Assembly: GCA_964361325.1 (NCBI GenBank) | Contig: CAYHZT010000002.1 | Coordinates: forward strand, 1 to 40,707 | Direction of reading: 5' to 3' | DNA length: 40,707 bases | Source: an uncultured Candidatus Saccharibacteria bacterium | Lineage (GTDB): Bacteria > Patescibacteriota > Minisyncoccia > UBA6257 > WO2-44-18 | Shown: piece after piece, positions 1-18,946 of the stretch | Numbering within the stretch: position 1 is the first letter of the stretch | Layout: the number at the start of each line of letters is the position of its first letter | Notes under the pieces: generated by a model | Seen by the model: only the letters and a program-made list of their open reading frames with translations | Told to the model about the DNA's origin: nothing | Databases searched by the model: none | Made by a program: the position numbers and the translations under genes

Positions 1-1174
1 AGTAATACTGCCGCAAAGTTTGCCAATAAGGCCGGAGCGCGCCGTCAAAACCGATTAACAATACCGGCTTGCCCAAAACGGCCGCATCAATGGCTAACGT
101 TGATGCAAATGCCACGACAACATCGCTGTGATACAACAAATCCGCCAAATGGGCATCTTCTTTAGGCGCTATGTCCGCTCCGGAAAAATGACGGCTATTA
201 GACGGCGTATCGATGGCGATTTTGCCGGGAATCGGTTTTATGTCGCCCAAATCCACCTTGCCCACTAAGTATGATCTTATTATCAACTGCGTATCATCTA
301 GCTTACTCAACTCTTTTATGACTTGCACGGATACGGGATTATGTTTCGCGTAAATATCGCTGGGCGGGGCAAAAAAAACGGTTTTCTTTTTGGGGTCAAG
401 GTTCATCCGTTTGAAAAATTCATCGCGGGGCGTTCTTAAGTCGGAAAGATAACGGTCGTAGTGAGGAATACCTGAAATAAAAATGTTTTCCGGATTAACA
501 TCGTTGTATTTAATTGCCTCTTCTTTAATTTTGGGCGTATGAACGATAAGTTTGTCGGGAATTATCCTGTTTAATCCGTGAGACGTTATGTTGTCCCAGG
601 AACGCACCATTCCGACAATAAAAATCCCAAAGTAACGAGCTTCGCGCATTACTTCAATATCGTGGTCATTAAAAACATCGGTGGCGAAAACTAAATCGGG
701 CTTGTATTTATCAAAACACTGCGCATATCGGTCTTTGGGCATCAATAGATAATCAAGGCGCCTTAATACAGAACGATAAACTCTCAAATTTCCCAATTTT
801 GCCAAAATCCAATGAATAAAAGTCTGAACATATCTGCCTTTTATTTTACGCTCCGCCAGTCGCATTACTCGCCATGAGTTGGTATCCGAAGAATGTAAAA
901 ATAACGAAAAAAACATCCTTTCCAGAAATGACCGCGAGGCGGTTTCCAGCTGGGTTCCTTCCGTGCTGAATCGGGTATTGACGAGTCGTAAACCCTCCAC
1001 AACGACATTGCCATTTTTGCCTCCAAAATACCGTTGTAAATCACCTTGTTTTTCAATAGGTGAAAGAATGACGATTCGCGCATCGGGCTGATTGGCTAAA
1101 ATTTCCAATATACTAGTTGAAAGAATGTTCCGAGCGCTTAATCCGGAAAAAGAAGTTATGAAAACGGTTCTCAT
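1..1174 (-). CDS. TagB/TagF-like (CDP-glycerol glycerophosphotransferase family) GT-B transferase; 3' end runs off the left edge; paralog of 8434..9780
   Basis: Absent from the ORF track because it has no stop inside the window. My translation from the ATG at 1174-1172 reads MRTVFITSFSGLSARNIL...MVRSWDNITSHGLNRIIPDK...GIPHYDRY...LADLLYHSDVVVAFASTLAIDAAVLGKPVLLIGFD, open down to position 2. It is roughly 45% identical by eye to the 8434..9801 protein and shares a 28-nt identical block (123-150 vs 8768-8795). The family call rests on the C-terminal GT-B pattern typical of Glyphos_transf proteins, without an HMM check. Confidence 0.6.
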   Translation of the reverse strand, partial: MRTVFITSFSGLSARNILSTSILEILANQPDARIVILSPIEKQGDLQRYFGGKNGNVVVEGLRLVNTRFSTEGTQLETASRSFLERMFFSLFLHSSDTNSWRVMRLAERKIKGRYVQTFIHWILAKLGNLRVYRSVLRRLDYLLMPKDRYAQCFDKYKPDLVFATDVFNDHDIEVMREARYFGIFIVGMVRSWDNITSHGLNRIIPDKLIVHTPKIKEEAIKYNDVNPENIFISGIPHYDRYLSDLRTPRDEFFKRMNLDPKKKTVFFAPPSDIYAKHNPVSVQVIKELSKLDDTQLIIRSYLVGKVDLGDIKPIPGKIAIDTPSNSRHFSGADIAPKEDAHLADLLYHSDVVVAFASTLAIDAAVLGKPVLLIGFDGALRPYWQTLRQYY

Positions 1175-1195
1175 ATGCCTTAATAAAACTTACTT

Positions 1196-1225
1196 TTGGC
1201 GTAAAAAGTTATACTATAATATAAT
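1196..1225 (+). promoter_or_regulatory. candidate sigma70-like promoter (TTGGCG-N18-TATAAT) in the divergent gap
   Basis: TTGGCG at 1196-1201 and TATAAT at 1220-1225, about 20 nt upstream of the ATG at 1246. Hexamer match only. Confidence 0.25.
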
Positions 1226-1245
1226 ATTGTGTACGACCCAAACTA

Positions 1246-1998
1246 ATGAAATATTACACCGCCGAAGAACTTAAAACCACTAACAAAGAGGGAGCTCACG
1301 ACATTCTCGACGAATGTGAAGGACATCTCGTGAAACTCAATTTCGGCATTGAGGTCTTCGAGGTCTGGCATAAAAAATTATTCAACGGCGATAAACAGGT
1401 AAAAATTCTGGACCTTGGAACCGGAAGCGGCGGGTTCGCGCGCCAATTGGCCGGGATAAACTGCGCCGGCAACCTTTACGGCACGGACATTGACGACTAT
1501 CGCAAAAATGAAATTAAGCCTCTTTATAAAGAATTCAAAGCGGCAGATTTGAGCTGGGATTCTCTTCCGTGGCCGGATAATACTTTTGATGTCGTAACCG
1601 CCTGGTGTATTCTACCGCATCTGGAAAATCCTTTTTATTGCGTCCGCGAGGTCAATAGGGTTCTGAAAAAAAACGGCGTTTTCATTTTCTCGGTGCCCCA
1701 CCTCGCCTCCAAATCCTCAACTGACTATTTCCAAAAAAACGGGAATTTCCCGCATTATCGCCAAACCAATAATCACATCTCTCTATTCCCTGAAGCGGTA
1801 GTCAAAAGCACTATTTTAAAAAACTTTGATTTAGTGGACACCGAATACGCCGTAAGACCGAAAAATTTTCAAAGAAGCATCAAAAATAAAATCCGGGCAG
1901 TGATTTATTCTCTGATTAACAAATATTGGCCAAGAGCCGGCAAAGCGTTGCGACACCGCTGGGCTTATGACGTTATTTATACGATCAGAAAAAAATAA
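1246..1998 (+). CDS. class I SAM-dependent methyltransferase (paralog set A)
   Basis: 250-aa ORF. Motif I is ILDLGTGSGGF and the post-motif is FDVVTAWCILPHLENP. It shares the N-terminal M-K-Y-Y-T-A-E-E-L-K and NNHISLFP motifs with 1998..2693 and 13029..13739. Confidence 0.85.
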   Translation: MKYYTAEELKTTNKEGAHDILDECEGHLVKLNFGIEVFEVWHKKLFNGDKQVKILDLGTGSGGFARQLAGINCAGNLYGTDIDDYRKNEIKPLYKEFKAADLSWDSLPWPDNTFDVVTAWCILPHLENPFYCVREVNRVLKKNGVFIFSVPHLASKSSTDYFQKNGNFPHYRQTNNHISLFPEAVVKSTILKNFDLVDTEYAVRPKNFQRSIKNKIRAVIYSLINKYWPRAGKALRHRWAYDVIYTIRKK

Positions 1999-2693
1999 TG
2001 GAATATTTTAGCACGGAAGAAACAAAAGGCAATAACGAAGCGCGCAAACGTTTGACGGCCTATGTTTCTCAATCCATTAAGCATAATTTCCCTCTTCAGG
2101 TACTCTCCCGATATCAACCCGACAAAAACGCGAAAATTTTAGATGCCGGAACGGCCAGCGGCGCCTTTCTTCAACAATTACACGAGGCCGGCTACGCCAA
2201 TCTGTATGGCGTGGACCTGGAAAATTATATGTCAGTCAAAATTCCGCTTAAAGATTTTAAAACGGCTGATTTCAACATAGACGCGCTTCCATTTGCCGAT
2301 AACAGCTTTGACGCAATCACGGCGTGGTGCGTAATCGCGCACTTGGAAAATCCCTATCATTTCGTAAGAGAGGCGCACAGAATTCTTAAAAAAGGAGGTT
2401 TATTAATTATGACACTGCCTCATATCGGATCGGCGTCAGAACGATTGTCTTTTCACAAAAATGGGGAATTTATCGCGTACAAGCCCAACAATAATCACAT
2501 AACCATTTGGACTTCATCGCTCGTAAAAAAGACAACGTCAAAATACTTTGATTTTTGGGGAGAGGAATATTTGTTGAAAAATAAAATTTTTAAAGGCCTC
2601 AAAGGAAAACTTCGAAAATGGTATTCCGAACGGAATCCGTCTATCGCCCGCAAGTGGGGCTCCAAAATCGCTTACGTTTTAAAAAATAAATAA
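1998..2693 (+). CDS. class I SAM-dependent methyltransferase (paralog set A)
   Basis: 231-aa ORF. Motifs ILDAGTASGAF, FDAITAWCVIAHLENP and NNHITIW. Its start overlaps the upstream stop (TAATG). Confidence 0.85.
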   Translation: MEYFSTEETKGNNEARKRLTAYVSQSIKHNFPLQVLSRYQPDKNAKILDAGTASGAFLQQLHEAGYANLYGVDLENYMSVKIPLKDFKTADFNIDALPFADNSFDAITAWCVIAHLENPYHFVREAHRILKKGGLLIMTLPHIGSASERLSFHKNGEFIAYKPNNNHITIWTSSLVKKTTSKYFDFWGEEYLLKNKIFKGLKGKLRKWYSERNPSIARKWGSKIAYVLKNK

Positions 2694-2715
2694 AAAGAAC
2701 CCAGTTAAGGGTTCT
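2681..2715 (-). terminator. intrinsic terminator at the end of the long minus-strand glycan operon (also sits between convergent genes)
   Basis: On the minus strand it reads AGAACCC-TTAACT-GGGTTCT followed by TTTTTATTTATTTTTT. The 7-bp stem is 2696-2702 / 2709-2715. The 5' arm includes the last codons and stop of the radical SAM gene. Confidence 0.6.
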
Positions 2716-4759
2716 GTTCGGTCAGTTCGGTAATAGTTCGGTAAATCTTACTGACATGAATCTTGCTCAAAATCCGGGAGATACCCGCAACGTCCCTGCC
2801 GTATACGCCAAGCGCGCCTTCAATAATTTTCTTTTGCTCATCGGTATGGGAAAAGGAAAATACTACGCCTTTTGACTTACTAAAGCTGTCGGGCAAAGAT
2901 TTGAAGTCCAGACTCTCCAACGCTTTAAGGTCATAATGGAAAGCGGCGGTAAAGATATGCGATGTGTTAAACAAATCAAATTTTCTCAATTCGCTGTATT
3001 GTCGCAGCTCTTTCAGGTAATCAGAATATTTTTCCAGCACCTCGGGTGATTTACTTTCTAGCAGCGCTTGGGAGCAATCGTACGCTACCCCGATAACTTC
3101 TTTAATCACATTGCGAAGAGTCAAGGCTTTATATCCAAAAATCAGGTTTTTGCCTAATTCTCCGGAAATGTATTTTTCTATCGTCTCGTTCTGCTTCACA
3201 AAACGCTCCAAATCTTCTCGGGAAGGCCATAGCTCATCACGCGTTTCTTCGTGAAATTGGCGATAGAGCTGTTTCAGCGCTTCGGGAAAAAGATGGCGCT
3301 GATTATGAATGTGCAGCAGCCAATCAAAAGCGGAAATATTAAAGAGATTCAAAAATTCAACCAGTTCGGACGCAACGCTGTCATTGTAAAAGATTTCCAC
3401 GGTGAGATGAAAAAGCCGACACTCCAAATAGTCCTCAAAAGACATATCTTTAGTGGCCACGCACACTTCCTCAATCTCTGCGCTCATCACCGGATCTTCG
3501 CCGCCAAATTGGTAAGTTCCAAAACAGCGCGGCAACACTCGATAACGGGCCAACATCTTATACTTATCGCGGTTGGCGGGGGATGTCATATCAGTGCCGG
3601 CCAGCAACATTAGCGTGTAAAGTCTGACCCAATTAAATTTTGCGTTCACCACGGCTTCAATTGTCTTGAAGTGAGTTTCTTTGCTTTCTCCCGGCAGAGG
3701 AATAATGATTTCGGAATAAGTGTTACTGCCCAATTCTTTGGCTTTGATGGCTAATTTCATCAGCTGGTCTGCTGAAATATTTTTCCTTTTAATGTTCTCC
3801 AACACGCTGTCTGTCAGCGACTGAACAGACCCGGCCAATCTCAATGCTTTATTCACGGTCTTCGCGACCCTCAAAACTCGCTCTCCTTGGTTCTTACCTG
3901 TGCTGGTGTGAAGATATTTGGGCCAACCATACTGTTTTTGCACCTTCGCAATCGCATTGGCAACTTCTTCGTCTTCTTTATACATTCCAAAATTTGAATC
4001 GGCGATATGCAAGTCAACAATATTTGGATGTTTTCGCTGAGCAATATAACAAAGTTCGTCGTAAATCACGGAAATCGAACGCCGACTCACTTTGTTGTAG
4101 TACAATTGACCTTCGATACAGAACGTACAGGAAAACGGACAACCGCGGCTTGCTTGAATAATCGGAACCAATTTATCATCAAAAAAATCATCCATTTCGC
4201 CGCTAAGATACGGCGACGGCACATCATCCAAATTTTTAATTCTATCGACAGTCGGGCCGGCAACAAATTTGCCATCCAAAAGATAATGACAGCCTGCCGG
4301 CCTTGCCAGCTTCACCGCATTAACTTCAAAATTGTGATCCGCCAAACATTGGAGGAGTTCAGAAAGCGCAATTTCGCCTTCTTTGTATACGCAAAAATCA
4401 ATCAGAGGATATTCCTCTAAAAACCGCTGCTGTTCTTGGGCGTCAGTAGGATAGTTGGGTCCGCCGGCGATCAAAATTAAACCGGGGTTCCTTTTTTTGA
4501 TGCGCGCGGCAATGTTATAGCTTAAATCCAAATTCCAGACGTAATTGCTAAGGCAAAGAATGTCGGGAACTTCATCCAGAACTGCCGAAATAAGCTTTTC
4601 CGGATATTTGAATATCTTGAACTGAAAAACAGACTGATTCCCAAATTTTGCTTTAGCATAAGTAACTAAGCCCCCAACCGCATAAGGTATGGTGTTAGAA
4701 GCAATGGTTTGCGATGTGTGAGTCAAGTCGCTTACGTAAACCTTGACAGTCATTTTCAC
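2705..4759 (-). CDS. B12-binding domain radical SAM protein (class B type) with a long C-terminal extension
   Basis: 684 aa. CxxxCxxC cluster motif in ASRGCPFSCTFC. The N-terminal Rossmann-like segment (ILCLSNYVWNL...LILIAGGPNYP) is typical of the cobalamin-binding domain. About 250 aa after the SAM core match no family I recognise. GAGGTG Shine-Dalgarno just upstream of the ATG. Confidence 0.85.
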   Translation of the reverse strand: MKMTVKVYVSDLTHTSQTIASNTIPYAVGGLVTYAKAKFGNQSVFQFKIFKYPEKLISAVLDEVPDILCLSNYVWNLDLSYNIAARIKKRNPGLILIAGGPNYPTDAQEQQRFLEEYPLIDFCVYKEGEIALSELLQCLADHNFEVNAVKLARPAGCHYLLDGKFVAGPTVDRIKNLDDVPSPYLSGEMDDFFDDKLVPIIQASRGCPFSCTFCIEGQLYYNKVSRRSISVIYDELCYIAQRKHPNIVDLHIADSNFGMYKEDEEVANAIAKVQKQYGWPKYLHTSTGKNQGERVLRVAKTVNKALRLAGSVQSLTDSVLENIKRKNISADQLMKLAIKAKELGSNTYSEIIIPLPGESKETHFKTIEAVVNAKFNWVRLYTLMLLAGTDMTSPANRDKYKMLARYRVLPRCFGTYQFGGEDPVMSAEIEEVCVATKDMSFEDYLECRLFHLTVEIFYNDSVASELVEFLNLFNISAFDWLLHIHNQRHLFPEALKQLYRQFHEETRDELWPSREDLERFVKQNETIEKYISGELGKNLIFGYKALTLRNVIKEVIGVAYDCSQALLESKSPEVLEKYSDYLKELRQYSELRKFDLFNTSHIFTAAFHYDLKALESLDFKSLPDSFSKSKGVVFSFSHTDEQKKIIEGALGVYGRDVAGISRILSKIHVSKIYRTITELTEQNP

Positions 4760-4835: not shown

Positions 4836-5744
4836 TTATTTTGATTTAAAAAAATTGTCGTATTCGCCCATTGAAAGCAGTAAATCGTCGTCGCTAAGCG
4901 ATACTCTTCGGCTATTGTATATAACTCCGTAACGGAAACCGGCACTCTTTAAAACGTCCAACGAATGGCTGTCACAATCCCCAAACGGATAAGAAAACGC
5001 CTCTACTTTGTCATTTATCATGCTTTCAACTATATCTTTTGCCCTTACGATATCCTCTTTTTGCTCTTTAGAAGTTAAAGATTTCAAAGAAGTATGATTA
5101 TAGCTATGAACGCCGATGCCCATCCCCGCTTTATGCATTTCTCTTAATTGCTCCGGTTGCATGAAAAATTTTTTACAAAACCCTTTTTCGTCTTTAATGA
5201 TTGTGCCGAACAAGGAATCCGCAAAGCCTTCTTTTACGCTCAATGGCAGTTCAGCAATGATTTGCTTGAGGTTGGCGGTAATAACGTCGTCTTTAAGTCG
5301 AAACTCGGTATTAATCCTATGATCCATTGGTACTTTAAAATTCGGGAATGAGGCACTGGATTTCTCGTTAATGTAGTTTTCCAAACTAATAGCAATTTTT
5401 TTGCCGTCCATTACTGAAAATACTACGTGCATCTTTATAGTAACCGGGGCTTTCCCGTCAAATACCGAAGCGATTGGGAAGAAAAATGCCGAAATACCGC
5501 GCGCTATTAAGTCAGGAAATGCGTTTTCGTAGTGATCCGTAATGCCGTCATCAAAAACAAGACTGCAATATTTTTCTATGTCTTTCTTTTCTCTTTTGAG
5601 CGCCACTAATTCTTCGAGACGTACAATTTGATAATTATTTTTTAGAAAATCCAAATGCCCCCGAAACGCGTCACGGCTGTATCCCGGCAGTTTAAAAGCG
5701 TCCTTTCCATTATCCCGTATATAGTGATAGTCGATTATTGGCAT
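4836..5744 (-). CDS. polysaccharide deacetylase (NodB homology domain) family protein
   Basis: 302 aa. NodB motifs VFDDGITDHY (Asp-Asp) and GVHSYNHTSL (His-x-x-x-His). Confidence 0.8.
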   Translation of the reverse strand: MPIIDYHYIRDNGKDAFKLPGYSRDAFRGHLDFLKNNYQIVRLEELVALKREKKDIEKYCSLVFDDGITDHYENAFPDLIARGISAFFFPIASVFDGKAPVTIKMHVVFSVMDGKKIAISLENYINEKSSASFPNFKVPMDHRINTEFRLKDDVITANLKQIIAELPLSVKEGFADSLFGTIIKDEKGFCKKFFMQPEQLREMHKAGMGIGVHSYNHTSLKSLTSKEQKEDIVRAKDIVESMINDKVEAFSYPFGDCDSHSLDVLKSAGFRYGVIYNSRRVSLSDDDLLLSMGEYDNFFKSK

Positions 5745-5767: not shown

Positions 5768-6124
5768 CTACCCGCGAATTACTACATCCACCAGCACATT
5801 TTTCTCATCAACTACCGGAACAACATTAACTTCCCAATGTTCAAGAAAAAATTTTTCGGGATTCTTCAGGGTCTCGATATCCCGGCTGGATATAGTAATA
5901 GCGTTATAATTTAAAGCTTGGCTTACCGGCGTAGTCTGCATAACAGCTCCTTTCAATAGAGCTCGTCTTATCATTCCATCGGTAACAACGCCGACAACAT
6001 GCAGACTATCATCAACAACCACTGCCGAACCTCTGTGATTCGCGGTAATAACCTCCATCGCCTCCTTTAATGAGGAAGTGGCCTGAATTATATAACCGGA
6101 ATTTTTATCGTTTACTTGATTCAT
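5768..6124 (-). CDS. CBS-pair domain protein
   Basis: 118 aa. Two CBS-like halves (AVVVDDSLHVVGVVTDGMIRRALLKG and VVPVVDEKNVLVDVVIRG). No catalytic domain attached. Confidence 0.8.
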   Translation of the reverse strand: MNQVNDKNSGYIIQATSSLKEAMEVITANHRGSAVVVDDSLHVVGVVTDGMIRRALLKGAVMQTTPVSQALNYNAITISSRDIETLKNPEKFFLEHWEVNVVPVVDEKNVLVDVVIRG

Positions 6125-6130: not shown

Positions 6131-7294
6131 TTAATAGGTTAAGCGCTTTACTAATAATTTGTCATTAATCGTTGTTCTTGCCAAGATGTCCAAAATTCTC
6201 TTTGAGGATTTGCCGTCGCCATACAGACTCACGGCCTTATCGGCCTGTTTTTTAAAGGCCGGTGAAATAGCTCTCTGGATCGCTGATTTAATTTCAGCCG
6301 CGTTATGAGCGACGTTAATAACATTATCGCTCTGCACTCTTCCTTTTTGGCGATTGCCGATATTAACCACCGGGAGCTTGAAAAGCGGCGCCTCGATTAT
6401 TCCCGAAGACGAATTGCCAACCAGAACCGAAACCGCTTTCATCAAACCGGCGTAGTCGGCACGGGTAACGTTTTCAAAAACTTTCATCTTAGGAGTGCGG
6501 TATTTCAAGATAGTTGATCTGATTGTATTGCTACCGGCATCGGAATTATTCAAAATAACGACGGTTTGATAGCCCAATTCGGTTACGGCTTTCATCGTTT
6601 CGGTCATCTGCTTTTCGGCATGCTCGCATTCTTCCGTTACCGAGTGCTGAACCAATAAAATAGCCGGCTCGTTCTTTTTGATGCCATATTGTTTTTGTAT
6701 CTTCTCTTTTGGACTGATCAGGCCGGCAGTTAATTCATCCAACTGCGGCGCGCCAACGTTAAATACCCTGAACGGTTCCTCTCCCATTTTTAAGACTCTT
6801 TGAGTAGCGTCTTCATTGGAACTAAAATGAATATTGGCCAATTTTGTTATGGCATGCCTGATGACGCCATCGATATTCCCCGACAGTTCGCCGGCTTGAA
6901 TGTGAACTACGGGAATGTACATATGTGCGCCCACGATAGCCGCAATAAATTGCTCGCCGCGATCACCCGCAACCAATATAAAGTCGGGATTTATTCGTTC
7001 AATGACCGTGGGGAATTCCATCATGGCGATACCAAGAGACTTCACCATAGTCAACCGGCTATAACCGTCCAGAGTATTGTAAACAACCCCCCCGATTTTT
7101 AATCCGTCCTTTTTCATTTCTTCAATACTCAAACCGAATGTATTCAGAGGATGCATATTGCAAACCACCAATTCATAATCAAAATCCCTCCTCTTCTCAA
7201 TCTCCCTGATAATAGGACGGAAATAGCCGTACTCTCCTCGAGAACCGGCTATAATCAGTATTTTTTTTGGTTTTTTTGCTTTAAAAATAGGCAT
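6131..7294 (-). CDS. neuC: UDP-N-acetylglucosamine 2-epimerase (hydrolysing), NeuC family
   Basis: GDRGEQFIAAIVGAHMYIPVVHIQAGELSGNIDGVIRHAITKLANIHF and MGEEPFRVFNVGAPQLDEL match the NeuC signature. The track ORF starts at a GTG at 7324. I prefer the ATG at 7294 (MPIFKAKKPKKILIIAGSRGEYG), 12 nt after the neuB stop. Confidence 0.85.
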   Translation of the reverse strand: MPIFKAKKPKKILIIAGSRGEYGYFRPIIREIEKRRDFDYELVVCNMHPLNTFGLSIEEMKKDGLKIGGVVYNTLDGYSRLTMVKSLGIAMMEFPTVIERINPDFILVAGDRGEQFIAAIVGAHMYIPVVHIQAGELSGNIDGVIRHAITKLANIHFSSNEDATQRVLKMGEEPFRVFNVGAPQLDELTAGLISPKEKIQKQYGIKKNEPAILLVQHSVTEECEHAEKQMTETMKAVTELGYQTVVILNNSDAGSNTIRSTILKYRTPKMKVFENVTRADYAGLMKAVSVLVGNSSSGIIEAPLFKLPVVNIGNRQKGRVQSDNVINVAHNAAEIKSAIQRAISPAFKKQADKAVSLYGDGKSSKRILDILARTTINDKLLVKRLTY

Positions 7295-9780: not shown

Positions 9781-9797
9781 AATTTTTTGAAAAAGTG

Positions 9798-11195: not shown

Positions 11196-11938
11196 CAGAT
11201 TTCTTTCTGCTCTTTTAACAACTGCTCCATTTTTACCAAATCTTTCGGCTCATCAATATCAACAACTATCGAAGGATTGATAATAACGCCACCTATAGGA
11301 CCGGCAAAAACTGCCTTAGTGCCACGCTTTATATTTTTAGTCCAAGTCACATCCACCGCTCCGTTGGCCCAGTAAACTTTAGGTAATTTTTGCCGGGGAA
11401 CGTCATTACCCCATTTCTTAAAATGAGCCGCGGGAACAAAATCCGGTAAAAGCGCCATCAATTCGGCAGTCTTCCCTTTCATTGTCCATGTACGATACGG
11501 ATGAGCGGGTGCCTGCGAAACCGTCCTAACCAAACTATACGAACTATTTTTAGTAAATTTAATAACTTTATCGATAAGATCGCCGGGGCGAAAAGGCGAC
11601 GTAGGGCGTAAAATAACGACGAGTTCCGGCCGCCAGCCGCGATGTTTTTCCAACCAATTTAGCGCGTGTTGTTGATATTCAACTTCCGCGGAGAATTTTC
11701 GAGCAGTGTGTTTTGGACGCAAGAACGGCACGTCAGCGCCGCATTGTTTCGCTATTTCAGCAATTTTCGGACTATCGGTAGAAACAATAAAGGCGTCTAG
11801 AAGCTTTGATTTTTTCGCCGCGCGGATTGTGTAATCAATAAGTGGTTTTCCGGCAACATTGGCAATGTTTTTTAATTTAATACTGGTTGACCCGCCGCGA
11901 GCCGGTATAATGCCGAGAACTTTTATATCCTTTTTCAT
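11195..11938 (-). CDS. neuA: acylneuraminate cytidylyltransferase (CMP-nonulosonate synthetase)
   Basis: VLGIIPARGGSTSIKLKNIANVAGKPLIDYTIRAA...IVSTDS and ILRPTSPFR match the CTP_transf_3 / NeuA signature. Confidence 0.85.
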   Translation of the reverse strand: MKKDIKVLGIIPARGGSTSIKLKNIANVAGKPLIDYTIRAAKKSKLLDAFIVSTDSPKIAEIAKQCGADVPFLRPKHTARKFSAEVEYQQHALNWLEKHRGWRPELVVILRPTSPFRPGDLIDKVIKFTKNSSYSLVRTVSQAPAHPYRTWTMKGKTAELMALLPDFVPAAHFKKWGNDVPRQKLPKVYWANGAVDVTWTKNIKRGTKAVFAGPIGGVIINPSIVVDIDEPKDLVKMEQLLKEQKEI

Positions 11939-11954: not shown

Positions 11955-13019
11955 CTATTTTAACGCCCCCACGAGTTTCTCTATAAGCGTGTTGAGGTCG
12001 TGGCGGCCCAAAACGTATTCTCGCAAACGCGCTCCCATTTGTTGCTTTTCTTGATTTGACATAGCCAAAGCGACGCCAAGTGCCCGGGCTAAATCTTTCG
12101 CGTCCTTTTCTTGAAACCGCAGCGGTTCGGGCAAAATATCGGCAACGGCCTTGTTAGACGCAACTACCAACATCTCGCAGGCCATCGCTTCTATAATTGT
12201 TTTATCAAATGAGCCAGTTGGTGTCATATTGACGCAAATTTCATGGCTATTATAAAGTTCCGACGCTTTATGATTAGGTACCGCGTTTCGGAAAACTATT
12301 TTGCCTTTTTTAACGAGCGGTTCGGCGCGCGTTTTTAAAGAGGCGGCGTAAGCAACTTCGCTGTCCTTGCTCGGTTCGCCGGCAATAGTTAGCCTAAAAT
12401 CAACGACTTGAGTATCCAGCATTAATGCGGCATCAATAAGCACTTCAATAAATTTAATCGGGGAAAGTCGGCCAAGATACAAGATTGACTTGGGAAGTTT
12501 TTGAATCGCCGGCAATTTGCGAAAAAGGTTGGCGTCAATGCCAACCGGCATTTGTTTCGCTTTTTTGAAACGAGCGGCGAACGCGAAAGGAGAAGTGTGT
12601 AAAACCTTATCGGCAAGCGCGATGGCAACGCGCGCTCGCAAACCGCCCATCGGGTGGTTATACCAGAAAAATATTTTTTTACCGAGTAGCTTCCATAATT
12701 TTGCCCCCAAAATCATATATTCCGGATTCATATGCACCAACACCCTATCGTAATCTTTTCTAAGACGCCAAATGTACTTTAAAAAATTAATTGCGTAAAT
12801 TAATTTTTTAATAATTTTCAATTTCCAATTTCGAATTTCTAATTTTTCTTTTCCTAGAGAATAGACACGGACATTGTCGGGTAATTCCACCCTGCCGCGA
12901 TAAAGACAAATTACCGAGATTTTCTCAACGCGTTTTGCCAGTTCCTCAATCCACCGATGATACACGCCGAGGATGTCATCATCTTTATCTATTTTTTGGG
13001 TAATGAATAGTAAACGCAT
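11955..13019 (-). CDS. GT4-family (GT-B) glycosyltransferase
   Basis: 354 aa. C-terminal GSFDKTIIEAMACEMLVVASN (E-x7-E type motif). Contains an in-frame heptamer tract. Confidence 0.8.
   Translation of the reverse strand: MRLLFITQKIDKDDDILGVYHRWIEELAKRVEKISVICLYRGRVELPDNVRVYSLGKEKLEIRNWKLKIIKKLIYAINFLKYIWRLRKDYDRVLVHMNPEYMILGAKLWKLLGKKIFFWYNHPMGGLRARVAIALADKVLHTSPFAFAARFKKAKQMPVGIDANLFRKLPAIQKLPKSILYLGRLSPIKFIEVLIDAALMLDTQVVDFRLTIAGEPSKDSEVAYAASLKTRAEPLVKKGKIVFRNAVPNHKASELYNSHEICVNMTPTGSFDKTIIEAMACEMLVVASNKAVADILPEPLRFQEKDAKDLARALGVALAMSNQEKQQMGARLREYVLGRHDLNTLIEKLVGALK
12815..12842. repeat. degenerate heptanucleotide tract (TTTTCAA TTTCCAA TTTCGAA TTTCTAA) inside a GT4 gene
   Basis: Read directly. 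Encodes KLEIRNWKLKI in frame. Confidence 0.85.
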
Positions 13020-13028: not shown

Positions 13029-13739
13029 TTATTGTTTATGCGGCTGTTCTAATTTTTTTAAAACATAATAAACCCAAGTTCCAAACCATTTATTTTCGGG
13101 GAGACACCTGCTAATTCTATGTAGCCCTGGCAAAGCAATAGCGGCATGCGCATACCCCTCTTCCTTTAAGTCAAAATATCGTAAAAAAGTTTTTTCAAAA
13201 ATACCGTGAGGGAAAACACTAATATGATTATTTGTTTCGTTCCACTTTGGGAAAAGACCGCGTTTTAAGAACACTAACCGGGAAACTATATGAAAAACGT
13301 TAGGCATAGAAACGAATAGTTGGCCGCCCGGTTTTAGTATTCGCCATATTTCACGCATGGCGTGATGAGGGTTTTCAAGATGCTCAAACACTTCCCATGC
13401 CGTTACGGCATCGAAACTCCCGCTTTTCCAGGGAAAGTTTTCTGAATTTCCATCAAATACCCGAAAATCATTTAAAACTGACCGTATATCACCTGCCATA
13501 AAATTACCAATATCGCAGCCATAAAGTTGTGTATATCCAATTGAGCTTAATTCCTTTAGAAACCCCCCGGACCCCGTTCCGAAATCTAAAATTTTTGAAT
13601 CTTTGTTTTTAAGACTACGACAAAATATATCCACGCACTTTCCTTTCAGGGGCAATGGCCTAACGCTGGCTTGCGCGGCAAATCCCTTTTTTATTGCGTT
13701 TGTTTTCGTCTTCATTTCTTCGGGTGTGTAATACTCCAT
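13029..13739 (-). CDS. class I SAM-dependent methyltransferase (paralog set A)
   Basis: 236 aa. Motifs ILDFGTGSGGF, FDAVTAWEVFEHLENP and NNHISVFP. N-terminus is MEYYTPEEMK. Confidence 0.85.
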   Translation of the reverse strand: MEYYTPEEMKTKTNAIKKGFAAQASVRPLPLKGKCVDIFCRSLKNKDSKILDFGTGSGGFLKELSSIGYTQLYGCDIGNFMAGDIRSVLNDFRVFDGNSENFPWKSGSFDAVTAWEVFEHLENPHHAMREIWRILKPGGQLFVSMPNVFHIVSRLVFLKRGLFPKWNETNNHISVFPHGIFEKTFLRYFDLKEEGYAHAAIALPGLHRISRCLPENKWFGTWVYYVLKKLEQPHKQ

Positions 13740-13790
13740 TTTTGAGATACTAACAATAAAAATAATTAACTACAATAATAATCTGCGTTT

Positions 13791-14927
13791 CTATTGCCAT
13801 GAGATTTTAATTCTATCCAAGTACTCCTGTTTGGTAGGCCAACTCTGGAAAAATTTTTCCTGTGTATTTATAACTTTTGCGCGCTGATCGGGGTTTTTTA
13901 TCATCTCCGCTATCGTATATGATAGCGCCTTACGATCTCCCACCGGTACGGTCTTCCCAATAGCCACGCCGACATCGGTCATAATTACGGGCAAGCCGGC
14001 GGTCGCCGCCTCAACCACTCCCATCCCATAACCCTCATAATTGGAAGTACTCAAAAATAAATCGGCCGTCTTATAATAAGAAATCAAATCGTCGGTCCAG
14101 CTCTCAATTCTAATACTATCCCCTAATTCATAATTCTTGATTCTTGATTCAAGATTTTCACGCTCCGGCCCATTCCCCACTATAAGCAATAAAGGGGCCA
14201 TGATTCCCGACCCCTGATTCTTAATTCTGGCGAAAGCCCCTATAGCCAAGTCAATGTTTTTCTCCTTCGTCAATCGTGAAGCCATCAAAATTATAAAATC
14301 GTGGTTGGGATATTTTTTATGTAAGTCATTTCTAACGGGTGCGTTTCGTATTTTTTCCACATCAACAAAAATCGGCAAAACAGTAATCCGTGATTCTTTA
14401 TTCTTTATTCTTGATTCGAGCGATTCTTTTATCCGCTCGGAAACGACGCGAAGACAATCGGCCTTTTTGATGAGCCGTTTTGCCAGCAGAACGCGAAGTT
14501 TGTTTTTCAATGATTCGCGCCAAAAATATGGACTTAAAAAATCGGTGTGGATTTGTATTTGGAGGGGGATTTTAAATTTTTTCTTAAGCCAATAACCGAC
14601 TAGGCCAGTTTCAAATGGATCCTGGGTAGTTATAATACAATTCTCAATTTTCAATTTTAAATTTTCGATTATGGATTTACAAATTTTATAGGCATCAAAA
14701 AAATAAAGTGGCTTAAATTTTGTGTTTGTCGGATAAGCAAAAACATTTTTGGCAATTTGTAATTTGGCGCTTGTTTGAAAATTGGAAATTGGAAATTGGA
14801 AATTTCGTCTTGTAAAGACAACTATATGCAGTTCATCAACAAGACTGCTATATTCCGCCATTCTCTGGCGCACTGCCGAGTTTTCTTCAAAAATCTTTCC
14901 GTCAACGGAAAGCATTAATACCTTCAT
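13791..14927 (-). CDS. GT4-family glycosyltransferase
   Basis: 378 aa. Motifs YEGYGMGVVEAATAGLPVIMTDVG and IVGNGPERENLE. Carries four separate heptamer tracts. Confidence 0.8.
   Translation of the reverse strand: MKVLMLSVDGKIFEENSAVRQRMAEYSSLVDELHIVVFTRRNFQFPISNFQTSAKLQIAKNVFAYPTNTKFKPLYFFDAYKICKSIIENLKLKIENCIITTQDPFETGLVGYWLKKKFKIPLQIQIHTDFLSPYFWRESLKNKLRVLLAKRLIKKADCLRVVSERIKESLESRIKNKESRITVLPIFVDVEKIRNAPVRNDLHKKYPNHDFIILMASRLTKEKNIDLAIGAFARIKNQGSGIMAPLLLIVGNGPERENLESRIKNYELGDSIRIESWTDDLISYYKTADLFLSTSNYEGYGMGVVEAATAGLPVIMTDVGVAIGKTVPVGDRKALSYTIAEMIKNPDQRAKVINTQEKFFQSWPTKQEYLDRIKISWQ
14124..14151. repeat. heptamer tract TAATTCA TAATTCT TGATTCT TGATTCA
   Basis: Read directly. Encodes ESRIKNYELG. 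Homologous position and sequence to 15949-15976. Confidence 0.85.
14391..14418. repeat. heptamer tract TGATTCT TTATTCT TTATTCT TGATTCG
   Basis: Read directly. Encodes ESRIKNKESRI. Confidence 0.85.
14641..14668. repeat. heptamer tract TTCTCAA TTTTCAA TTTTAAA TTTTCGA
   Basis: Read directly. Encodes IENLKLKIEN. Confidence 0.85.
14779..14804. repeat. perfect (AAATTGG)x3 plus partial unit; reverse complement of the TTTCCAA unit
   Basis: 14779-14799 is three exact units. Encodes FQFPISNFQ, which is the opposite-orientation reading of the 16111-16138 tract. Confidence 0.9.
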
Positions 14928-15571
14928 TGTCGTTTTTCCAGCACAAAAAAATAATGGTAAGGATTTAAAACCGGGCTTAATTCCTTAACAATCCTAAAAT
15001 TGTCGCTCAAGATTTTCCGCACTTTCCGTAATGAGTATTTAGAAGCGTCTATTTCCCAGTAATGCTGGCCGGAGACTTTAATACCGCCAAACTTCATGGG
15101 CAAGCGCAATAAAACGCTAAGAAATGGCTTTTTAAACAAAGTACGAACGCCCGGAAAGCGAAAAACAAATTCAAAAAACGTAGATTTATAAGGCACGGAG
15201 ATAATGACGTGGCGTGAAGCAACTCTTTGAAACTCCAAAAGGGCTTTGGGGAAATCTTCAAATGGTATGTGCTCCAAAACCTCAAAAGCGGTTACCACGT
15301 CAAAACTATTATTCTTAAGCGGCAAAGAACGGACATCGGCCACGACATCCGGAGCGAGATTTTTATCAAAATCGCAAGTGGTTACGTTGTATCCAAGCTT
15401 CTTAAGATAATCAGAAAAAAAACCGTTGCCCTTTCCCACTTCCAAAATCTTGAAATTGGCATCGTTAGCTCGCGCAACTTCTTGCGTCAAATCAGCCTGA
15501 TAGAAATACGAAATAAAGCGGTTTAGGCTGTCGTAATCCTTCTGAAAGTAATGCTCTTTATTAACCTGCAT
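14924..15571 (-). CDS. class I SAM-dependent methyltransferase (distinct from paralog set A)
   Basis: 215 aa. Motifs ILEVGKGNGFFSDYL and FDVVTAFEVLEHIP. 4-nt overlap with the downstream GT and 1-nt overlap with the upstream GT. Confidence 0.8.
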   Translation of the reverse strand: MQVNKEHYFQKDYDSLNRFISYFYQADLTQEVARANDANFKILEVGKGNGFFSDYLKKLGYNVTTCDFDKNLAPDVVADVRSLPLKNNSFDVVTAFEVLEHIPFEDFPKALLEFQRVASRHVIISVPYKSTFFEFVFRFPGVRTLFKKPFLSVLLRLPMKFGGIKVSGQHYWEIDASKYSLRKVRKILSDNFRIVKELSPVLNPYHYFFVLEKRQ

Positions 15572-17865
15572 TATTTTTGAATCGCATCTTGATTAATTAA
15601 GCTTACCAAGTTATCAACGGTTCGGTCTATTGAGAACTGTTGGGATTTTTCTTGAGCGTTTTTCACGATCATTTTCCGAAATTCATCATTCTCCGAAATT
15701 TTTTTGATTGCCGCCAAAATTTGTTGCCGATTATTCGGCTCAACTAAAATTCCCTCTTTACCGTCCTCAATAATTTCCGCCAAATTGCCAATATTGGTCG
15801 TGATTACCGGAACGCCGGCATTCATCGCTTCTACAACCTGGAAAGAAAAACTCTCAAAAGCTGTGTTTAGCACAAAGATTGATGATTTTTCTAAATATTC
15901 CAACAATTGCTCTCTAGGCAAAGAGCCAATCAATAAAACTCGTTCCCCTAATTCATAATTCTTAATTCGTAATTCAAGGCTCTCGCGCTCCGGCCCGTCG
16001 CCGACAATAATCAGCTTCCAATCCGGCAGATCTTTCATAACGTCAATCAAAACATCAAAACCCTTCCACGGAACCAATCTGCCAGCCGAAAGAATTGTTT
16101 TCGGCTGGAATTTCCAATTTCCAATTTCCAATTTCCAATTCTCTAGTGGAATACCGTTGTAGATAGCCTTAACTTTCTCCGGATTTTTAATCCAGCCGCC
16201 AACTAATTTCTGGAAGTATTTACTGGGAGTAATCACCAAATCGGCTTTTCCAACAACAAATCTTTGAATTTTCCGCAGTAATTCTATTCGCCAGCCGTAT
16301 TTCTTTTTCTGAAAATCATCAATCGTGTCCTTTACGCCGAATCTTTGAACGGATTGCTCCCAAGCATAATCACCAGCCACGCGAATAAAAAATTTCTTAC
16401 GACGCAGACGGGCCGCGATAAGCACGGGCAGGCCGACGCTTACCGGGTCTTGAGCGTACATAAAATCACAATCTTTAGTCATCCGCCAGCACTTCCACAA
16501 ATAAGACAGGTGGCGAATGATTTTTGGCTTGGTTCTAAATTTAGTGAACGGCAAAACGCTAACCATAAAGCCGCGTTTCGGCAGTTCTTGCTCCATCAAA
16601 ACGGTGTAGGTTGCCGGCCCGCCGATATCCGGAGGATATATACCGGTTGCGATCAAAATTTTCCCATGCCTACCGGCAGGCAGGAATTTTAAATTTTCAA
16701 TTTTCAATTTTTGGAAAATAGCGTCTATTTTTTTGGAAATATTGTCCCAGGAATAATTTTCTCTAACTAATTTTTGACCGTTTTGAGCTATTCGCAATCG
16801 TAATTTTTCGTCATTCGCTAAAACGCTGATTTTTTCCACTAAATCTTGCGGGTCATCAACTTTCGTGAAAAGACCCGTTTCGCCGTCTTTCAAAAAATCG
16901 GGAATACCCCCAACGGAAGTGCCGATTACAGGCAAGCCGGCCGCCATTGCTTCTAAAAATGAATTGCCCAATCCTTCGGAACGCGATGGGCGAACGAAAA
17001 TATCCGCTTGAGCAAGGTACGCGGGAATTTTTTCCGGCTCAATATGACCCAGAAATTCAATTTCATTTTCAACTCCCAAATCTTTAGCCAGTTTTTTCAA
17101 ATTTGCTTCCTCGGGACCGCTGCCAAGAATTTGAATTATGAATTGTGAATTGTGAATTAAGGGTTTTAATAGAGCAACGGCCTGAATCAGAGTATCTATT
17201 CCGTTTTTATGCACTAAACGAGAGGTGGTGATTATAACTTTTTCGTTTTTTGATTCATTCTTAATTCTTAATTCTTTATTCTTAATTCTCGTCAAGTCAA
17301 CGCCATTCGGCACCACTTCAATCGGACAGTTCGCTCCATGCCTCCGTGCGAACTCCGCCAAATAATTACTGATGGCCTGAATATGGTCCGCTTTTTTGAA
17401 AATCAAACGCCAGAGCGGATAAAAAATTCCGACCCGCTTTAAAATATGGCCCTCGGAATCGCCTTCTTGCAGGGTTAAAAGAAACGGCACGGACGGATGC
17501 CGTAATTTGAATAGCAGAGCAGCGATGCCGCTGTAGGCGGCCATAACCGCCCAAATCACCTCAAGAGGTTTTTCTTTATGCAACTTTTCCGCTTTCCACC
17601 AAACTCTGAAAACATAAAAAAATTTTTCCAAGAAACGTCCGTAATAATTTTTGGAACTGCTTCCTCGGCCGACCCGGAATATTTCGCAATTTCCCAATCG
17701 TTCATGGGATGGCCAAGATCGGTCAAACCGATTAGTTAAAATAAAAAAATCTTGCCCGGGAATCCGATCGCTTATTTCTTTAACCGCCACTTCCGCTCCC
17801 CCGATAAAAGGGGAGTAGGCAAGACTAAAAATAGCTATTCTTTGAATATCTTTAACGGGACTCAT
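15571..17865 (-). CDS. tandem GT4-GT4 two-module glycosyltransferase
   Basis: 764 aa. Module 1 ends ...NYSWDNISKKIDAIFQKL and has SEGLGNSFLEAMAAGLPVIGTSVGGIPD. Module 2 starts KILIATGIYPPDIGGPATY and has FESFSFQVVEAMNAGVPVITTNIGNLAE. The linker is repeat-derived (see 16667-16714). Confidence 0.85.
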   Translation of the reverse strand: MSPVKDIQRIAIFSLAYSPFIGGAEVAVKEISDRIPGQDFFILTNRFDRSWPSHERLGNCEIFRVGRGSSSKNYYGRFLEKFFYVFRVWWKAEKLHKEKPLEVIWAVMAAYSGIAALLFKLRHPSVPFLLTLQEGDSEGHILKRVGIFYPLWRLIFKKADHIQAISNYLAEFARRHGANCPIEVVPNGVDLTRIKNKELRIKNESKNEKVIITTSRLVHKNGIDTLIQAVALLKPLIHNSQFIIQILGSGPEEANLKKLAKDLGVENEIEFLGHIEPEKIPAYLAQADIFVRPSRSEGLGNSFLEAMAAGLPVIGTSVGGIPDFLKDGETGLFTKVDDPQDLVEKISVLANDEKLRLRIAQNGQKLVRENYSWDNISKKIDAIFQKLKIENLKFLPAGRHGKILIATGIYPPDIGGPATYTVLMEQELPKRGFMVSVLPFTKFRTKPKIIRHLSYLWKCWRMTKDCDFMYAQDPVSVGLPVLIAARLRRKKFFIRVAGDYAWEQSVQRFGVKDTIDDFQKKKYGWRIELLRKIQRFVVGKADLVITPSKYFQKLVGGWIKNPEKVKAIYNGIPLENWKLEIGNWKFQPKTILSAGRLVPWKGFDVLIDVMKDLPDWKLIIVGDGPERESLELRIKNYELGERVLLIGSLPREQLLEYLEKSSIFVLNTAFESFSFQVVEAMNAGVPVITTNIGNLAEIIEDGKEGILVEPNNRQQILAAIKKISENDEFRKMIVKNAQEKSQQFSIDRTVDNLVSLINQDAIQK
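15949..15976. repeat. heptamer tract (TAATTCN)x4
   Basis: TAATTCA TAATTCT TAATTCG TAATTCA. Encodes LELRIKNYELG. Confidence 0.9.
16082..16138. repeat. 10-bp-stem hairpin (CCAGCCGAAA / TTTCGGCTGG) immediately followed by perfect (TTTCCAA)x4
   Basis: Inverted repeat at 16082-16091 / 16099-16108. Four exact heptamers at 16111-16138. Encodes NWKLEIGNWKFQPKTILSAG. Confidence 0.9.
16667..16714. repeat. imperfect 16-bp GC palindrome (TGCCTACCGGCAGGCA) plus heptamer tract TTTTAAA TTTTCAA TTTTCAA TTTTTGG forming the inter-module linker
   Basis: Read directly. Encodes KLKIENLKFLPAGRHG, exactly between the two GT4 modules. Confidence 0.85.
17133..17160. repeat. heptamer tract GAATTAT GAATTGT GAATTGT GAATTAA (reverse orientation of the TTAATTC family)
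   Basis: Read directly. Encodes IHNSQFIIQ. Confidence 0.85.
17261..17288. repeat. heptamer tract TTAATTC TTAATTC TTTATTC TTAATTC
   Basis: Read directly. Encodes RIKNKELRIKN. Confidence 0.9.
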
Positions 17866-18946
17866 AAATCTTTTCCGTTTCTTGGACCATTCTTGAAAGC
17901 GTAAGTTTTTCGTTCAAGAATTGCTTCGCGACCACGGCAAACTTTTTTGCTTCTTCGGGATTCTCTAAATAATATTTGATAGCCCGGGCAATTTCTTCCG
18001 GCTCGCGAGGCGGCATTACCAATCCGCGATTTTGGACGATTTCGGTCATCCCCCCGATTCGGGTTACGACAAGCGGCACCTCGGCGGCCATAGCCTCCAG
18101 CATCGTGTAGGGAAGCCCTTCTTTAATGGAGGTCAAAAGAAAAATATCAAACGCCTTAAGATACGGCGCAGCCGGAGCCAGTTGTTCCACGATTAAGCAG
18201 CGGTTCTCCAAACTAAGTTTTTTAATTTTGGCTTTCAGTTTTGGCAGTTCGTAACCGGAACCGATAACAATAAAAAGCGCGTTGGGAAGCAACGCCGCCG
18301 CCTCCAAAAGAGTTTCGTAATCTTTTTCCGCTACAAGGCGACCGATAGAGCCGATCCAAGTTTTTTTATCGTCAATTTGCGCACAAGTTAATTTTCCCAA
18401 AATGCGGCGAGCCTCCATTTTCCCCATAAAATTAATAGGCGCGATGCCGTTATATATAGTTACTAATTTCTCTCTGGGGGCGATATTATACCGCACCGCC
18501 AATTGAAAATCATAATCGGAAACTGAAATTATAGAGTCTTGAAAACGAGCCGCTATCTTGTGAAGCAAAATATAAAAACGCTTCCGCAGCCAACTTAATT
18601 TATTGTCGGGATTAAAAACCCAGCCATGCGCGGTAAAAATCACTCGGGGCACTCCGGCAAGTTTTGCCGCGATTGAGCCGATGACTCCGGCCTTGGAACT
18701 ATTCAAATGCACAATGTCCGGCTTTTCGCGGCGAAAAATCAAAACAAACTCTATAAGAGCCAGAATATCGTTAATAAATAAAAAATGCGGGTGGATTGAA
18801 TTAGAGAGAAACCGGACGCCTTTTTCACCGCCAGTCAGTATACCGGCCTGAAATTTCAATGGGTCTAAACCTTCCGCCAATTCACGCACGTACTTTTGAG
18901 CGCCGCCAATGTCGTCTTTAGTAATTACAAAAAGAATCTTTTGCAT
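17852..18946 (-). CDS. GT4-family glycosyltransferase (first gene of the block)
   Basis: 364 aa. Motifs KEGLPYTMLEAMAAEVPLVVTRIGGMTE and N-terminal KILFVITKDDIGGAQ. 14-nt overlap with the next gene. Confidence 0.8.
   Translation of the reverse strand: MQKILFVITKDDIGGAQKYVRELAEGLDPLKFQAGILTGGEKGVRFLSNSIHPHFLFINDILALIEFVLIFRREKPDIVHLNSSKAGVIGSIAAKLAGVPRVIFTAHGWVFNPDNKLSWLRKRFYILLHKIAARFQDSIISVSDYDFQLAVRYNIAPREKLVTIYNGIAPINFMGKMEARRILGKLTCAQIDDKKTWIGSIGRLVAEKDYETLLEAAALLPNALFIVIGSGYELPKLKAKIKKLSLENRCLIVEQLAPAAPYLKAFDIFLLTSIKEGLPYTMLEAMAAEVPLVVTRIGGMTEIVQNRGLVMPPREPEEIARAIKYYLENPEEAKKFAVVAKQFLNEKLTLSRMVQETEKIYESR

Follow-up and report, generated by a model that had tools for sequence, protein, structure and literature searches.

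What would a bacterium of the candidate phyla radiation (CPR) make with a sialic-acid-type pathway, and where on the cell would the product go? The prevailing view is that CPR bacteria live on the surface of host cells, and almost nothing is known about the chemistry of their own surface. We take up this question for a stretch of 40,707 nt (contig CAYHZT010000002.1, assembly GCA_964361325.1, positions 1–40,707; hereafter, the window), in which homologs of NeuC, NeuB, and NeuA, that is, enzymes that would synthesize and activate a nonulosonic acid (NulO), are embedded in a dense block of glycan genes. In our reading, which we consider probable, the window carries a Parcubacteria cell-surface glycan island with an N-acetylneuraminic acid (Neu5Ac)-type branch, located beside the gene for a peptidoglycan-binding surface protein.

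The core of the island is a block of 14 consecutive open reading frames (ORFs) that runs from 18946 down to 2705 on the minus strand (genes at positions up to 23686 are on this strand unless noted otherwise). Neighboring ORFs overlap by 1–14 nt at 17852/17865, 15571, 14924/14927, 11195, and 9798/9801, and the remaining gaps are all shorter than 80 nt; an initial annotation of the window had described these ORFs and their tight packing, and we find both as described. The block encodes NeuC, NeuB (with a SAF domain), a CMP-sugar synthetase, five GT4 glycosyltransferase modules, two S-adenosylmethionine (SAM) methyltransferases, a NodB-type deacetylase, a CBS pair, a B12-dependent radical SAM enzyme, a TagB-like enzyme, and a protein with multiple transmembrane segments. 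A promoter-like site (19043–19016) precedes the first gene (17852–18946). At the other end, a hairpin (2696–2715) followed by a T-run (element 2686–2715, minus strand) resembles a terminator, and the stop codon of the radical SAM gene sits in its loop; the hairpin with which the initial annotation ended the block is present, but terminator-like sites in the region are no more common than in shuffled sequences (25 found, 25.4 expected), so that alone it is weak evidence. Two further points of that annotation are revised: the locus does not end at 2705, as a minus-strand gene (2–1174) continues it past the left end of the window; and the four SAM methyltransferases exist, but only two are within the minus-strand block, the other two being encoded by the plus strand.

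The ORFs that had been assigned to the NeuC, NeuB, and NeuA families all match the corresponding Pfam and NCBIfam models. NeuC (6131–7294) scores 407.4 bits with the model for hydrolyzing UDP-GlcNAc 2-epimerases (TIGR03568; cutoff 235.9) and 252.7 bits with PF02350, as compared with only 92 bits for the nonhydrolyzing wecB model; its matches among solved structures are hydrolyzing epimerases (202 and 178 bits). NeuB (7306–8364) matches PF03102 (236.1 bits) and the SAF model PF08666 (40.3 bits), and its SDH and EKH metal/phosphoenolpyruvate (PEP) motifs align with those of the Neisseria meningitidis enzyme (NmNeuB), which is its best match among solved structures (203 bits, vs 145 for PseI and 143 for SpsE). 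NeuA (11195–11938), a CMP-nonulosonate synthetase without an esterase domain, matches PF02348 (79.1 bits); its best solved matches are CMP-Neu5Ac synthetases (87–73 bits), with KdsB at 31 bits or less. By homology, NeuC would hydrolyze and epimerize UDP-GlcNAc to N-acetylmannosamine (ManNAc), NeuB would form a Neu5Ac-type NulO from ManNAc and PEP, and NeuA would activate the product with CTP.

The type of the NulO was assessed from phylogeny and gene context. We collected 80 genomic loci with NeuB relatives (designated L and a number), clustered the flanking ORFs, and annotated the large flank families with Pfam (short-chain dehydrogenase/reductase (SDR)-type dehydratase, DegT, PglD, PtmE-type CBS-nucleotidyltransferase, GFO/IDH/MocA, and PseG); each synthase was labeled by its neighbors. 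The scans of genomes and metagenomes yielded at least 600 pattern matches, and the co-occurrence counts given here are samples, not censuses. In a neighbor-joining tree of 95 sequences that includes NmNeuB (PDB 1XUU) and in which references for the legionaminic (Leg) and pseudaminic (Pse) acid synthases LegI and PseI are defined by gene context only, the NeuB of the window groups with the Neu5Ac synthase of N. meningitidis, with bootstrap support of 100/100 for their clade. Every member of this clade has NeuC-type neighbors and lacks DegT, PglD, PtmE, and PseG; synthases with Leg-type or Pse-type neighbors fall into other clades, and the NeuC tree is congruent. DegT or PglD is found within 10 kb in 0/7 loci of the NeuB-NeuC-CBS clade, and family-model scans of the 40.7-kb window detect no 4,6-dehydratase, DegT aminotransferase, or PglD/PseH hexapeptide acetyltransferase. 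The initial annotation had reported no Leg- or Pse-specific genes in the window, which the scans bear out, and had left the choice among Neu, Leg, and Pse types to a NeuB phylogeny, which now separates the window enzyme from the Leg and Pse contexts. Thus, given the NeuB clade, the congruent NeuC tree, and the lack of dehydratase, DegT, and acetyltransferase genes in the window, the Neu5Ac-type reading is the best supported.

The presumed operon lies downstream of a gene for a secreted, Ser/Thr/Gly-rich protein of 1271 aa (19871–23686) that has a signal peptide, a short coiled segment, a PG_binding_1 domain (PF01471), a long Ser/Thr/Gly-rich region, and beta-type sequence; a strong terminator-like hairpin (19808–19834) follows the gene. 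A 51% identical ortholog occupies the same position in L091, and the protein is present in L090 too. A model scan of the protein identifies PG_binding_1 only, with no SLH or other known S-layer domain. From these features, it is plausible that this is a glycosylated surface protein. The gene differs in composition from the rest of the contig (GC content ~0.50 vs 0.42; tetranucleotide correlation 0.59–0.64 vs 0.97); this probably reflects its Ser/Thr/Gly/Ala-rich sequence. Between it and the block, a membrane-anchored TPR protein with an N-terminal transmembrane segment (19052–19771; TPR models) is encoded, as in the same position in L090 and L091.

Proposed assembly of the glycan and the candidate transferases

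In the model that we propose, most of the island is transcribed as a single long minus-strand operon, with the gene for the large secreted surface protein upstream of it. Working on the cytoplasmic side of the membrane, the five GT4 modules would build up a lipid-linked oligosaccharide, and the CMP-activated sugar would be added by one or both of two TagB-like GT-B paralogs. The sugar or the glycan would be tailored by the four SAM methyltransferases, by the NodB deacetylase, which is predicted to be cytoplasmic, and by a radical SAM C-methylase of the TokK/CysS kind. A Wzx-like protein would flip the product outwards, where either the adjacent surface protein or the wall would receive it. A CBS-pair protein coupled to NeuC may sense nucleotides and thereby regulate the entry step.

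The initial annotation stated that no recognized sialyltransferase is visible, and literally this is true: Pfam and NCBIfam models give no GT38, GT42, GT52, GT80, or GT100 hit on any ORF of the window. However, two TagB/TagF-like GT-B candidates are present that had been missed; one (8434–9801) had been left unidentified, together with the adjacent Wzx-like gene (9798–11195), and its paralog at the left end (2–1174) had been overlooked. The former, the candidate CMP-nonulosonate transferase, matches PF04464 with 56.7 bits (gathering score 22.1); the latter, which is partial at the end of the window, reaches 20.7 bits with the Glyphos_transf model, just below the gathering score. The two are 46% identical over 391 aa, and full-length orthologs of the partial gene (L089 and L009) have 465 aa. 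The family is largely from CPR.

That these enzymes transfer the NulO is the leading, but unproven, assignment that the sequences suggest. In Tannerella forsythia, deletion of the TagB-like proteins has been reported to leave the S-layer O-glycan without the pseudaminic or legionaminic acid at its end, so that these proteins are genetically required for addition of the NulO; the BFO_1060 family, to which the TagB-like pair of the window is weakly similar, takes its name from them. In L005, a TagB-like homolog directly follows NeuB-NeuC-CBS.

The TagB-like pair could instead be polyol-phosphate transferases for a teichoic-acid-like element, with the NulO added by another enzyme or to another target (e.g., pili); we regard this as possible, although doubtful. 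The Pfam family is that of CDP-glycerol glycerophosphotransferases. The AlphaFold2 model of 8434–9801 (mean predicted local distance difference test score (pLDDT) 89.9) has a GT-B fold with a helical insertion in the N-domain, and a Foldseek search with this model returns only generic GT-B neighbors (2-epimerases, MshA, TagF, and TarL), with no sialyltransferase in the top 50; thus, the donor of the TagB-like enzyme cannot be inferred from the fold. A sequence search of solved structures gives marginal similarity to TagF and TarL (TarL, E = 0.018) and no useful match. The sialyltransferase HP motif is absent from the TagB-like proteins, and a DEEG sequence at residues 422–425 of 8434–9801 is not conserved in the family alignment; with the model for the BFO_1060 family of Tannerella (NF046086; cutoff 200), the two proteins score 60.6 and 51.0 bits, respectively, that is, a resemblance only. 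Gene context is divided as well: the closest ortholog, in L090, has the same position with no NeuB or cytidylyltransferase gene within 10 kb, and L005 also encodes a TagD-like cytidylyltransferase (PF01467) beside one TagB-like gene. The identities among paralogs and orthologs do not separate a ‘core’ from a ‘module-linked’ type. The absence of sialyltransferase features, the generic fold, and the contexts in L090 and L005 all weigh against NulO transfer by this pair. So does the lack in the 40.7-kb window of any priming transferase, polymerase, ligase, oligosaccharyltransferase, or LCP enzyme weigh against the proposed pathway as a whole.

Against a polyol-phosphate function, no TagD-like or other gene for CDP-polyol synthesis is found in the window: NeuA is its only cytidylyltransferase, with no PF01467 or TarI/TarJ-type gene. 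GT4 enzymes are retaining enzymes that use UDP- or GDP-sugars, and none is known to use CMP-sugars. These points, together with the Tannerella deletions and the gene order in L005, argue against the polyol-phosphate reading, and the NeuA, Tannerella, and L005 observations also argue for NulO transfer by the TagB-like enzymes.

The block starts with a GT4 glycosyltransferase (17852–18946; Glycos_transf_1, 108 bits), followed by a double GT4 with two complete modules (15571–17865), in which each GT4 model matches twice (305.8 bits) and which has orthologs of 769 and 739 aa in L090 and L091. Two single enzymes, a GT4 glycosyltransferase at 13791–14927 (Glycos_transf_1, 101 bits) and a GT4-type glycosyltransferase at 11955–13019 (Glyco_trans_1_4 and Glycos_transf_1), complete the set. 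The multi-spanning membrane protein (9798–11195) has ~10 hydrophobic segments and no Pfam hit, but its 39% identical ortholog in L091 passes PF13440 (Polysacc_synt_3; 30.2 bits, gathering score 23); the segments and this ortholog suggest that it is probably a Wzx/MOP-type flippase. A hidden Markov model (HMM) built from three orthologs did not reach the annotated Wzx proteins of other loci, so the call depends on the Pfam hit of one ortholog; a sequence search of solved structures returned nothing useful.

The class I SAM methyltransferases comprise MT_a (1246–1998) and MT_b (1998–2693) on the plus strand, both matching Methyltransf_11/23, MT_c (13029–13739; Methyltransf_23/11), and MT_d (14924–15571; Methyltransf_11), for which the sugar O-methyltransferase model MftM gives a weak match (50 bits, cutoff 200). 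MT_a is found in the same position in L009 and L089, and MT_b is a paralog of MT_a and MT_c. These three have in common an N-terminal motif of the type M(E/K)YYT(P/A)EE and a motif NNHI(S/T), which suggests lineage-specific expansion of one sugar methyltransferase.

The identity of the sugar and the origin of the contig

The sugar might be of legionaminic type (5,7-diamino) or another non-Neu acid, with genes for the dehydratase, aminotransferase, and acetyltransferase either at another genomic location or just beyond the left end of the window. We consider this improbable, but a number of observations do weigh against a Neu5Ac-type product. The best solved match of NeuC is the GDP/UDP-diNAcBac hydrolyzing 2-epimerase of the legionaminic pathway of Acinetobacter baumannii (202 bits, vs 178 bits for human GNE). 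NeuB scores below the cutoff of the N-acetylneuraminate synthase equivalog TIGR03569 (293.9 vs 399.65 bits), as it does with the PseI model (244.7 bits, cutoff 340.25), and the only equivalog model that NeuA matches is that of PseF, also below cutoff (128.5 vs 205.7 bits); NeuB and NeuA thus belong to a divergent clade. The radical SAM family discussed below, where it accompanies NulO genes elsewhere, is mostly in Leg-type contexts. The window is also cut where its relatives continue: beyond the ortholog of the left-end gene, L009 has a second NeuB paralog (9266–10198), and L089 has an AsnB-like amidotransferase (9982–11703), which could form an acetamidino group. Finally, the tree is a neighbor-joining tree of a pattern-limited sample in which one enzyme only is biochemically characterized. 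Set against these points, the window NeuB groups 100/100 with NmNeuB and with loci that lack DegT, PglD, and PtmE, the Leg-context and Pse-context synthases are in other clades, and neither the seven loci of the NeuB-NeuC-CBS clade, within 10 kb, nor the 40.7-kb window itself provides the additional genes; comparison of the sequences therefore supports a Neu5Ac-type NulO.

A chimeric or mis-binned contig, with a glycan locus that belongs to a conventional bacterium, is very unlikely: homologs with ~71% NeuB identity in a Nitrospirae metagenome-assembled genome (MAG) do indicate that the module crosses phyla, but the glycan genes are physically linked to those for RecA, FtsK, ClpB, and others, tetranucleotide usage is uniform (the glycan and housekeeping halves correlate at 0.968, a value no lower than that within either half), the same locus occurs in a Parcubacteria MAG that was binned independently and comes from a different continent, and the same population is present in three other assemblies from the 0.1 µm fraction of Hainich groundwater.

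The RecA (35612–36616) shares 96% identity with its counterpart in Parcubacteria group bacterium GW2011_GWA2_47_8b and 95% with proteins from Giovannonibacteria and Harrisonbacteria MAGs; every named top match is from CPR. The GW2011_GWA2_47_8b MAG (L009) has the same gene order as the window and an 81% identical NeuB, and L089 has the same gene order too; assemblies of 0.1 µm-filtered Hainich groundwater contain identical genes, with the same population in three other runs, and the matching contigs all stop within the range that the window covers. RecA, synteny, and tetranucleotide usage agree, and by these sequence criteria a CPR (Parcubacteria) origin of the contig is confirmed, in keeping with the CPR-like genome that the initial annotation had recognized.

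Outside the island, a phosphomannomutase/phosphoglucosamine-mutase-like gene (31479–32797, minus strand) is split into two overlapping ORFs, with domain I at 32390–32797 and domains II–IV at 31479–32402; the break falls at an A-run (attaaaaaatgg), which suggests either a frameshift or a homopolymer sequencing error. A NifS/IscS-type cysteine desulfurase (28745–30100) has 451 aa, ~50–70 aa above the usual length; the models align to it in two or three separate segments, indicating that it contains an insertion. Neither Rfam models nor a tRNA scan gave any match in the window.

A radical SAM family in nonulosonic acid loci

The last gene of the block encodes a cobalamin-dependent radical SAM enzyme that resembles TokK, CysS, and KedN5 (2705–4759; PF02310, 35.6 bits; PF04055, 47.9 bits). 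The sequence CPFSCTFC at residue 207 provides the CxxxCxxC motif (C207, C211, and C214), and a C-terminal extension of ~280 aa follows. Its solved matches are TokK (168 bits) and CysS (119 bits); with the KedN5 family model it scores 182.7 bits, below the cutoff of 700.

We scanned metagenome contigs with an alignment of five radical SAM homologs and collected at least 80 loci. Among distant loci with a full-length-type match (at least 350 bits, with at least 9 kb of sequence), 11/23 encode a NeuB, NeuC, or NeuA homolog; among more distant loci, the count is 2/21. In loci with at least 350 bits, the radical SAM gene usually directly adjoins a NulO gene, and in three (L107, L111, and L130) it is located between NeuB and NeuC. 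The same link is found in a Chloroflexota and a Yanofskybacteria genome. In our literature searches, no paper linked nonulosonic, legionaminic, or pseudaminic acid to enzymes of the radical SAM type.

The NodB-type polysaccharide deacetylase (4836–5744; PF01522, 83.4 bits) is encoded next to the radical SAM enzyme. It has no signal peptide, transmembrane segment, or hydrophobic segment, which predicts a cytoplasmic location, and homologs are found beside NulO genes in L005, L091, L061, L121, and L130.

We tentatively propose, with some doubt, that the radical SAM enzyme, possibly together with the NodB deacetylase, is a dedicated tailoring enzyme that C-methylates NulOs in several phyla, giving undescribed C-alkylated sialic-acid-like sugars, with the CBS protein regulating NeuC. 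If so, the sugar or its N-acyl group would be C-methylated (e.g., acetyl to propionyl or isobutyryl); the recurrence of this cobalamin radical SAM family in NulO operons of unrelated bacteria points to an undescribed sugar modification. The only match from a cultured organism, however, weighs against a function limited to NulOs. This full-length homolog (40.6% identity) is encoded by plasmid NZ_CP054615.1 of Azospirillum oryzae (L173; 218967–244967), in a glycan-tailoring cluster that also encodes three further radical SAM proteins, a pair of carbamoyltransferases, a GNAT protein, methyltransferases, and an SGNH hydrolase, but no NulO genes; this suggests that the family is glycan-associated and not strictly NulO-specific. 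A. oryzae, a cultured bacterium, could provide tractable material for work on these enzymes.

Recurrence of the architecture and comparison with known systems

The layout of the island recurs. In L090 and L091, both of Parcubacteria type, the order is a PG_binding_1 protein (~1260–1270 aa), the TPR protein, GT4 enzymes including the double GT4, the flippase, the TagB-like enzyme, and then a variable module. In the window, this module is NeuC, NeuB, and NeuA; in L091 (12064–18055), it takes the form of a Kdn/Kdo-like route, with a NeuB-like synthase that has no SAF domain, split SIS domains, a HAD phosphatase, and a cytidylyltransferase; in L090, it includes a dehydratase, a formyltransferase, and DegT. 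The L091 region also encodes a short-chain dehydrogenase and a polysaccharide pyruvyl transferase.

Within the Neu-type module, a stand-alone CBS-pair protein of 118 aa (5768–6124; PF00571) is encoded 6 nt downstream of NeuC and is closest to the CBS part of KpsF/GutQ (52.7 bits). The NeuB-NeuC-CBS triad is kept in L004, L005, L007, L009, L010, L011, and L089 (CPR, Nitrospirae, and Omnitrophota), with CBS right after NeuC. The CBS-pair protein may be a nucleotide-sensing regulator of NeuC. Outside CPR, the triad is found in L007 (JGI 3300025317, Nitrospirae-type; ~71% NeuB identity), which holds two NeuB-NeuC pairs, and in L011 (Omnitrophota; 53%); the 71% identity of L007 resembles CPR-to-CPR values, suggesting that groundwater bacteria pass the module on laterally.

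Several relatives have additional genes. Sulfotransferases adjoin NeuB-NeuC-CBS in L005 (6361–9071) and L007 (14097–18762), and L007 has genes for the synthesis of 3′-phosphoadenosine-5′-phosphosulfate (ATP sulfurylase and an adenosine-5′-phosphosulfate kinase fused to a pyruvate kinase domain); these hint that such relatives make sulfated glycans. L005 (16096–17970), and also L006, encodes a 624 aa protein in which a NeuB domain is fused to AP_endonuc_2 (a xylose-isomerase-like TIM barrel); in L005 it adjoins a GFO/IDH/MocA oxidoreductase and a second cytidylyltransferase, an uncharacterized second route to an ulosonic acid. A NeuB fragment fused to MraY-like sequence (P0099, in L174) looks chimeric or decayed and was set aside.

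The initial annotation considered this investment notable for a minimal organism, which was overstated. The best 120 NeuB relatives are 57–91% identical, those that are named include Patescibacteria, Paceibacterota, and Kaiserbacteria MAGs, and NeuB homologs are common in Patescibacteria MAGs at 58–73% identity; the architecture recurs, as described above; and sialic acid genes were noted in Peregrinibacteria (CPR) in 2016. A large phylogeny of NulO synthases does not mention CPR, and our literature searches for NulOs with Patescibacteria or Parcubacteria yielded no relevant paper. The type of locus, a Wzx-type surface glycan locus with a Neu-type NulO branch, is already known; what goes beyond routine annotation is the recurrent gene order, the coupling of a CBS protein to NeuC, and the presence of the radical SAM family inside NulO operons. 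The locus can be viewed as a conserved genetic blueprint in which the gene for a surface protein precedes a glycan island whose acidic-sugar module can be exchanged, and the variation of the module among relatives (Neu-type, Kdn/Kdo-like, or formylated amino sugar) resembles serotype variation. A sialic-acid-type, heavily methylated coat could shape attachment to the host, recognition by phages, and behavior in groundwater.

Of the known systems, the CMP-Neu5Ac pathway of Escherichia coli K1 and N. meningitidis (NeuC/SiaA, NeuB/SiaC, and NeuA/SiaB) uses the same three enzyme families. Like that pathway, the window has no sugar-phosphate or diamino-sugar steps, and its NeuB is in the clade of the N. 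meningitidis enzyme, although the two are only ~36% identical. The window differs in that it lacks a GT38 polysialyltransferase, Kps export genes, and an esterase domain on NeuA; it also has the NeuC-coupled CBS protein and is part of a heavily methylated, Wzx-type heteroglycan locus. The legionaminic pathway of Campylobacter also ties a CBS pair to NulO synthesis, in the PtmE-type CBS-nucleotidyltransferase, and PtmE-like genes are frequent in Leg-context loci; the CBS pair of the window, in contrast, is a separate protein of 118 aa without a catalytic domain, always right after NeuC and in a Neu-type context.

The O-glycosylation locus of T. forsythia (Tanf_01245 and TFUB4_00887; BFO_1060 family) likewise combines a NulO pathway with TagB-like GT-B transferases, methyltransferases, and a flippase, and the target of its glycan is an abundant protein of the cell surface (S-layer). 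In the window, the HP and D/E-D/E-G motifs are not conserved and the BFO_1060 scores are far from the cutoff (60.6 and 51 vs 200); the sugar would be Neu-type rather than Pse or Leg, the CPR bacterium is monoderm-like, and the surface protein uses PG_binding_1. The TagB, TagF, and TarL enzymes of wall teichoic acid synthesis have in common with the window the PF04464 family, the GT-B fold, and a cytidine-nucleotide donor; as compared with TagF and TarL, the window has no gene for CDP-polyol synthesis, sequence similarity is marginal, and the N-domain has the helical insertion.

The closest parallels for the radical SAM enzyme are TokK/ThnK, CysS, and KedN5, with which it has in common a B12-binding domain and a radical SAM core with CxxxCxxC. 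Its best solved matches are iterative methylases of sp3 carbons. It differs in its distinct ~280 aa C-terminal extension and in a score well below the KedN5 family cutoff; and, whereas TokK/ThnK, CysS, and KedN5 function in antibiotic pathways, the family represented in the window is found in glycan and NulO loci.

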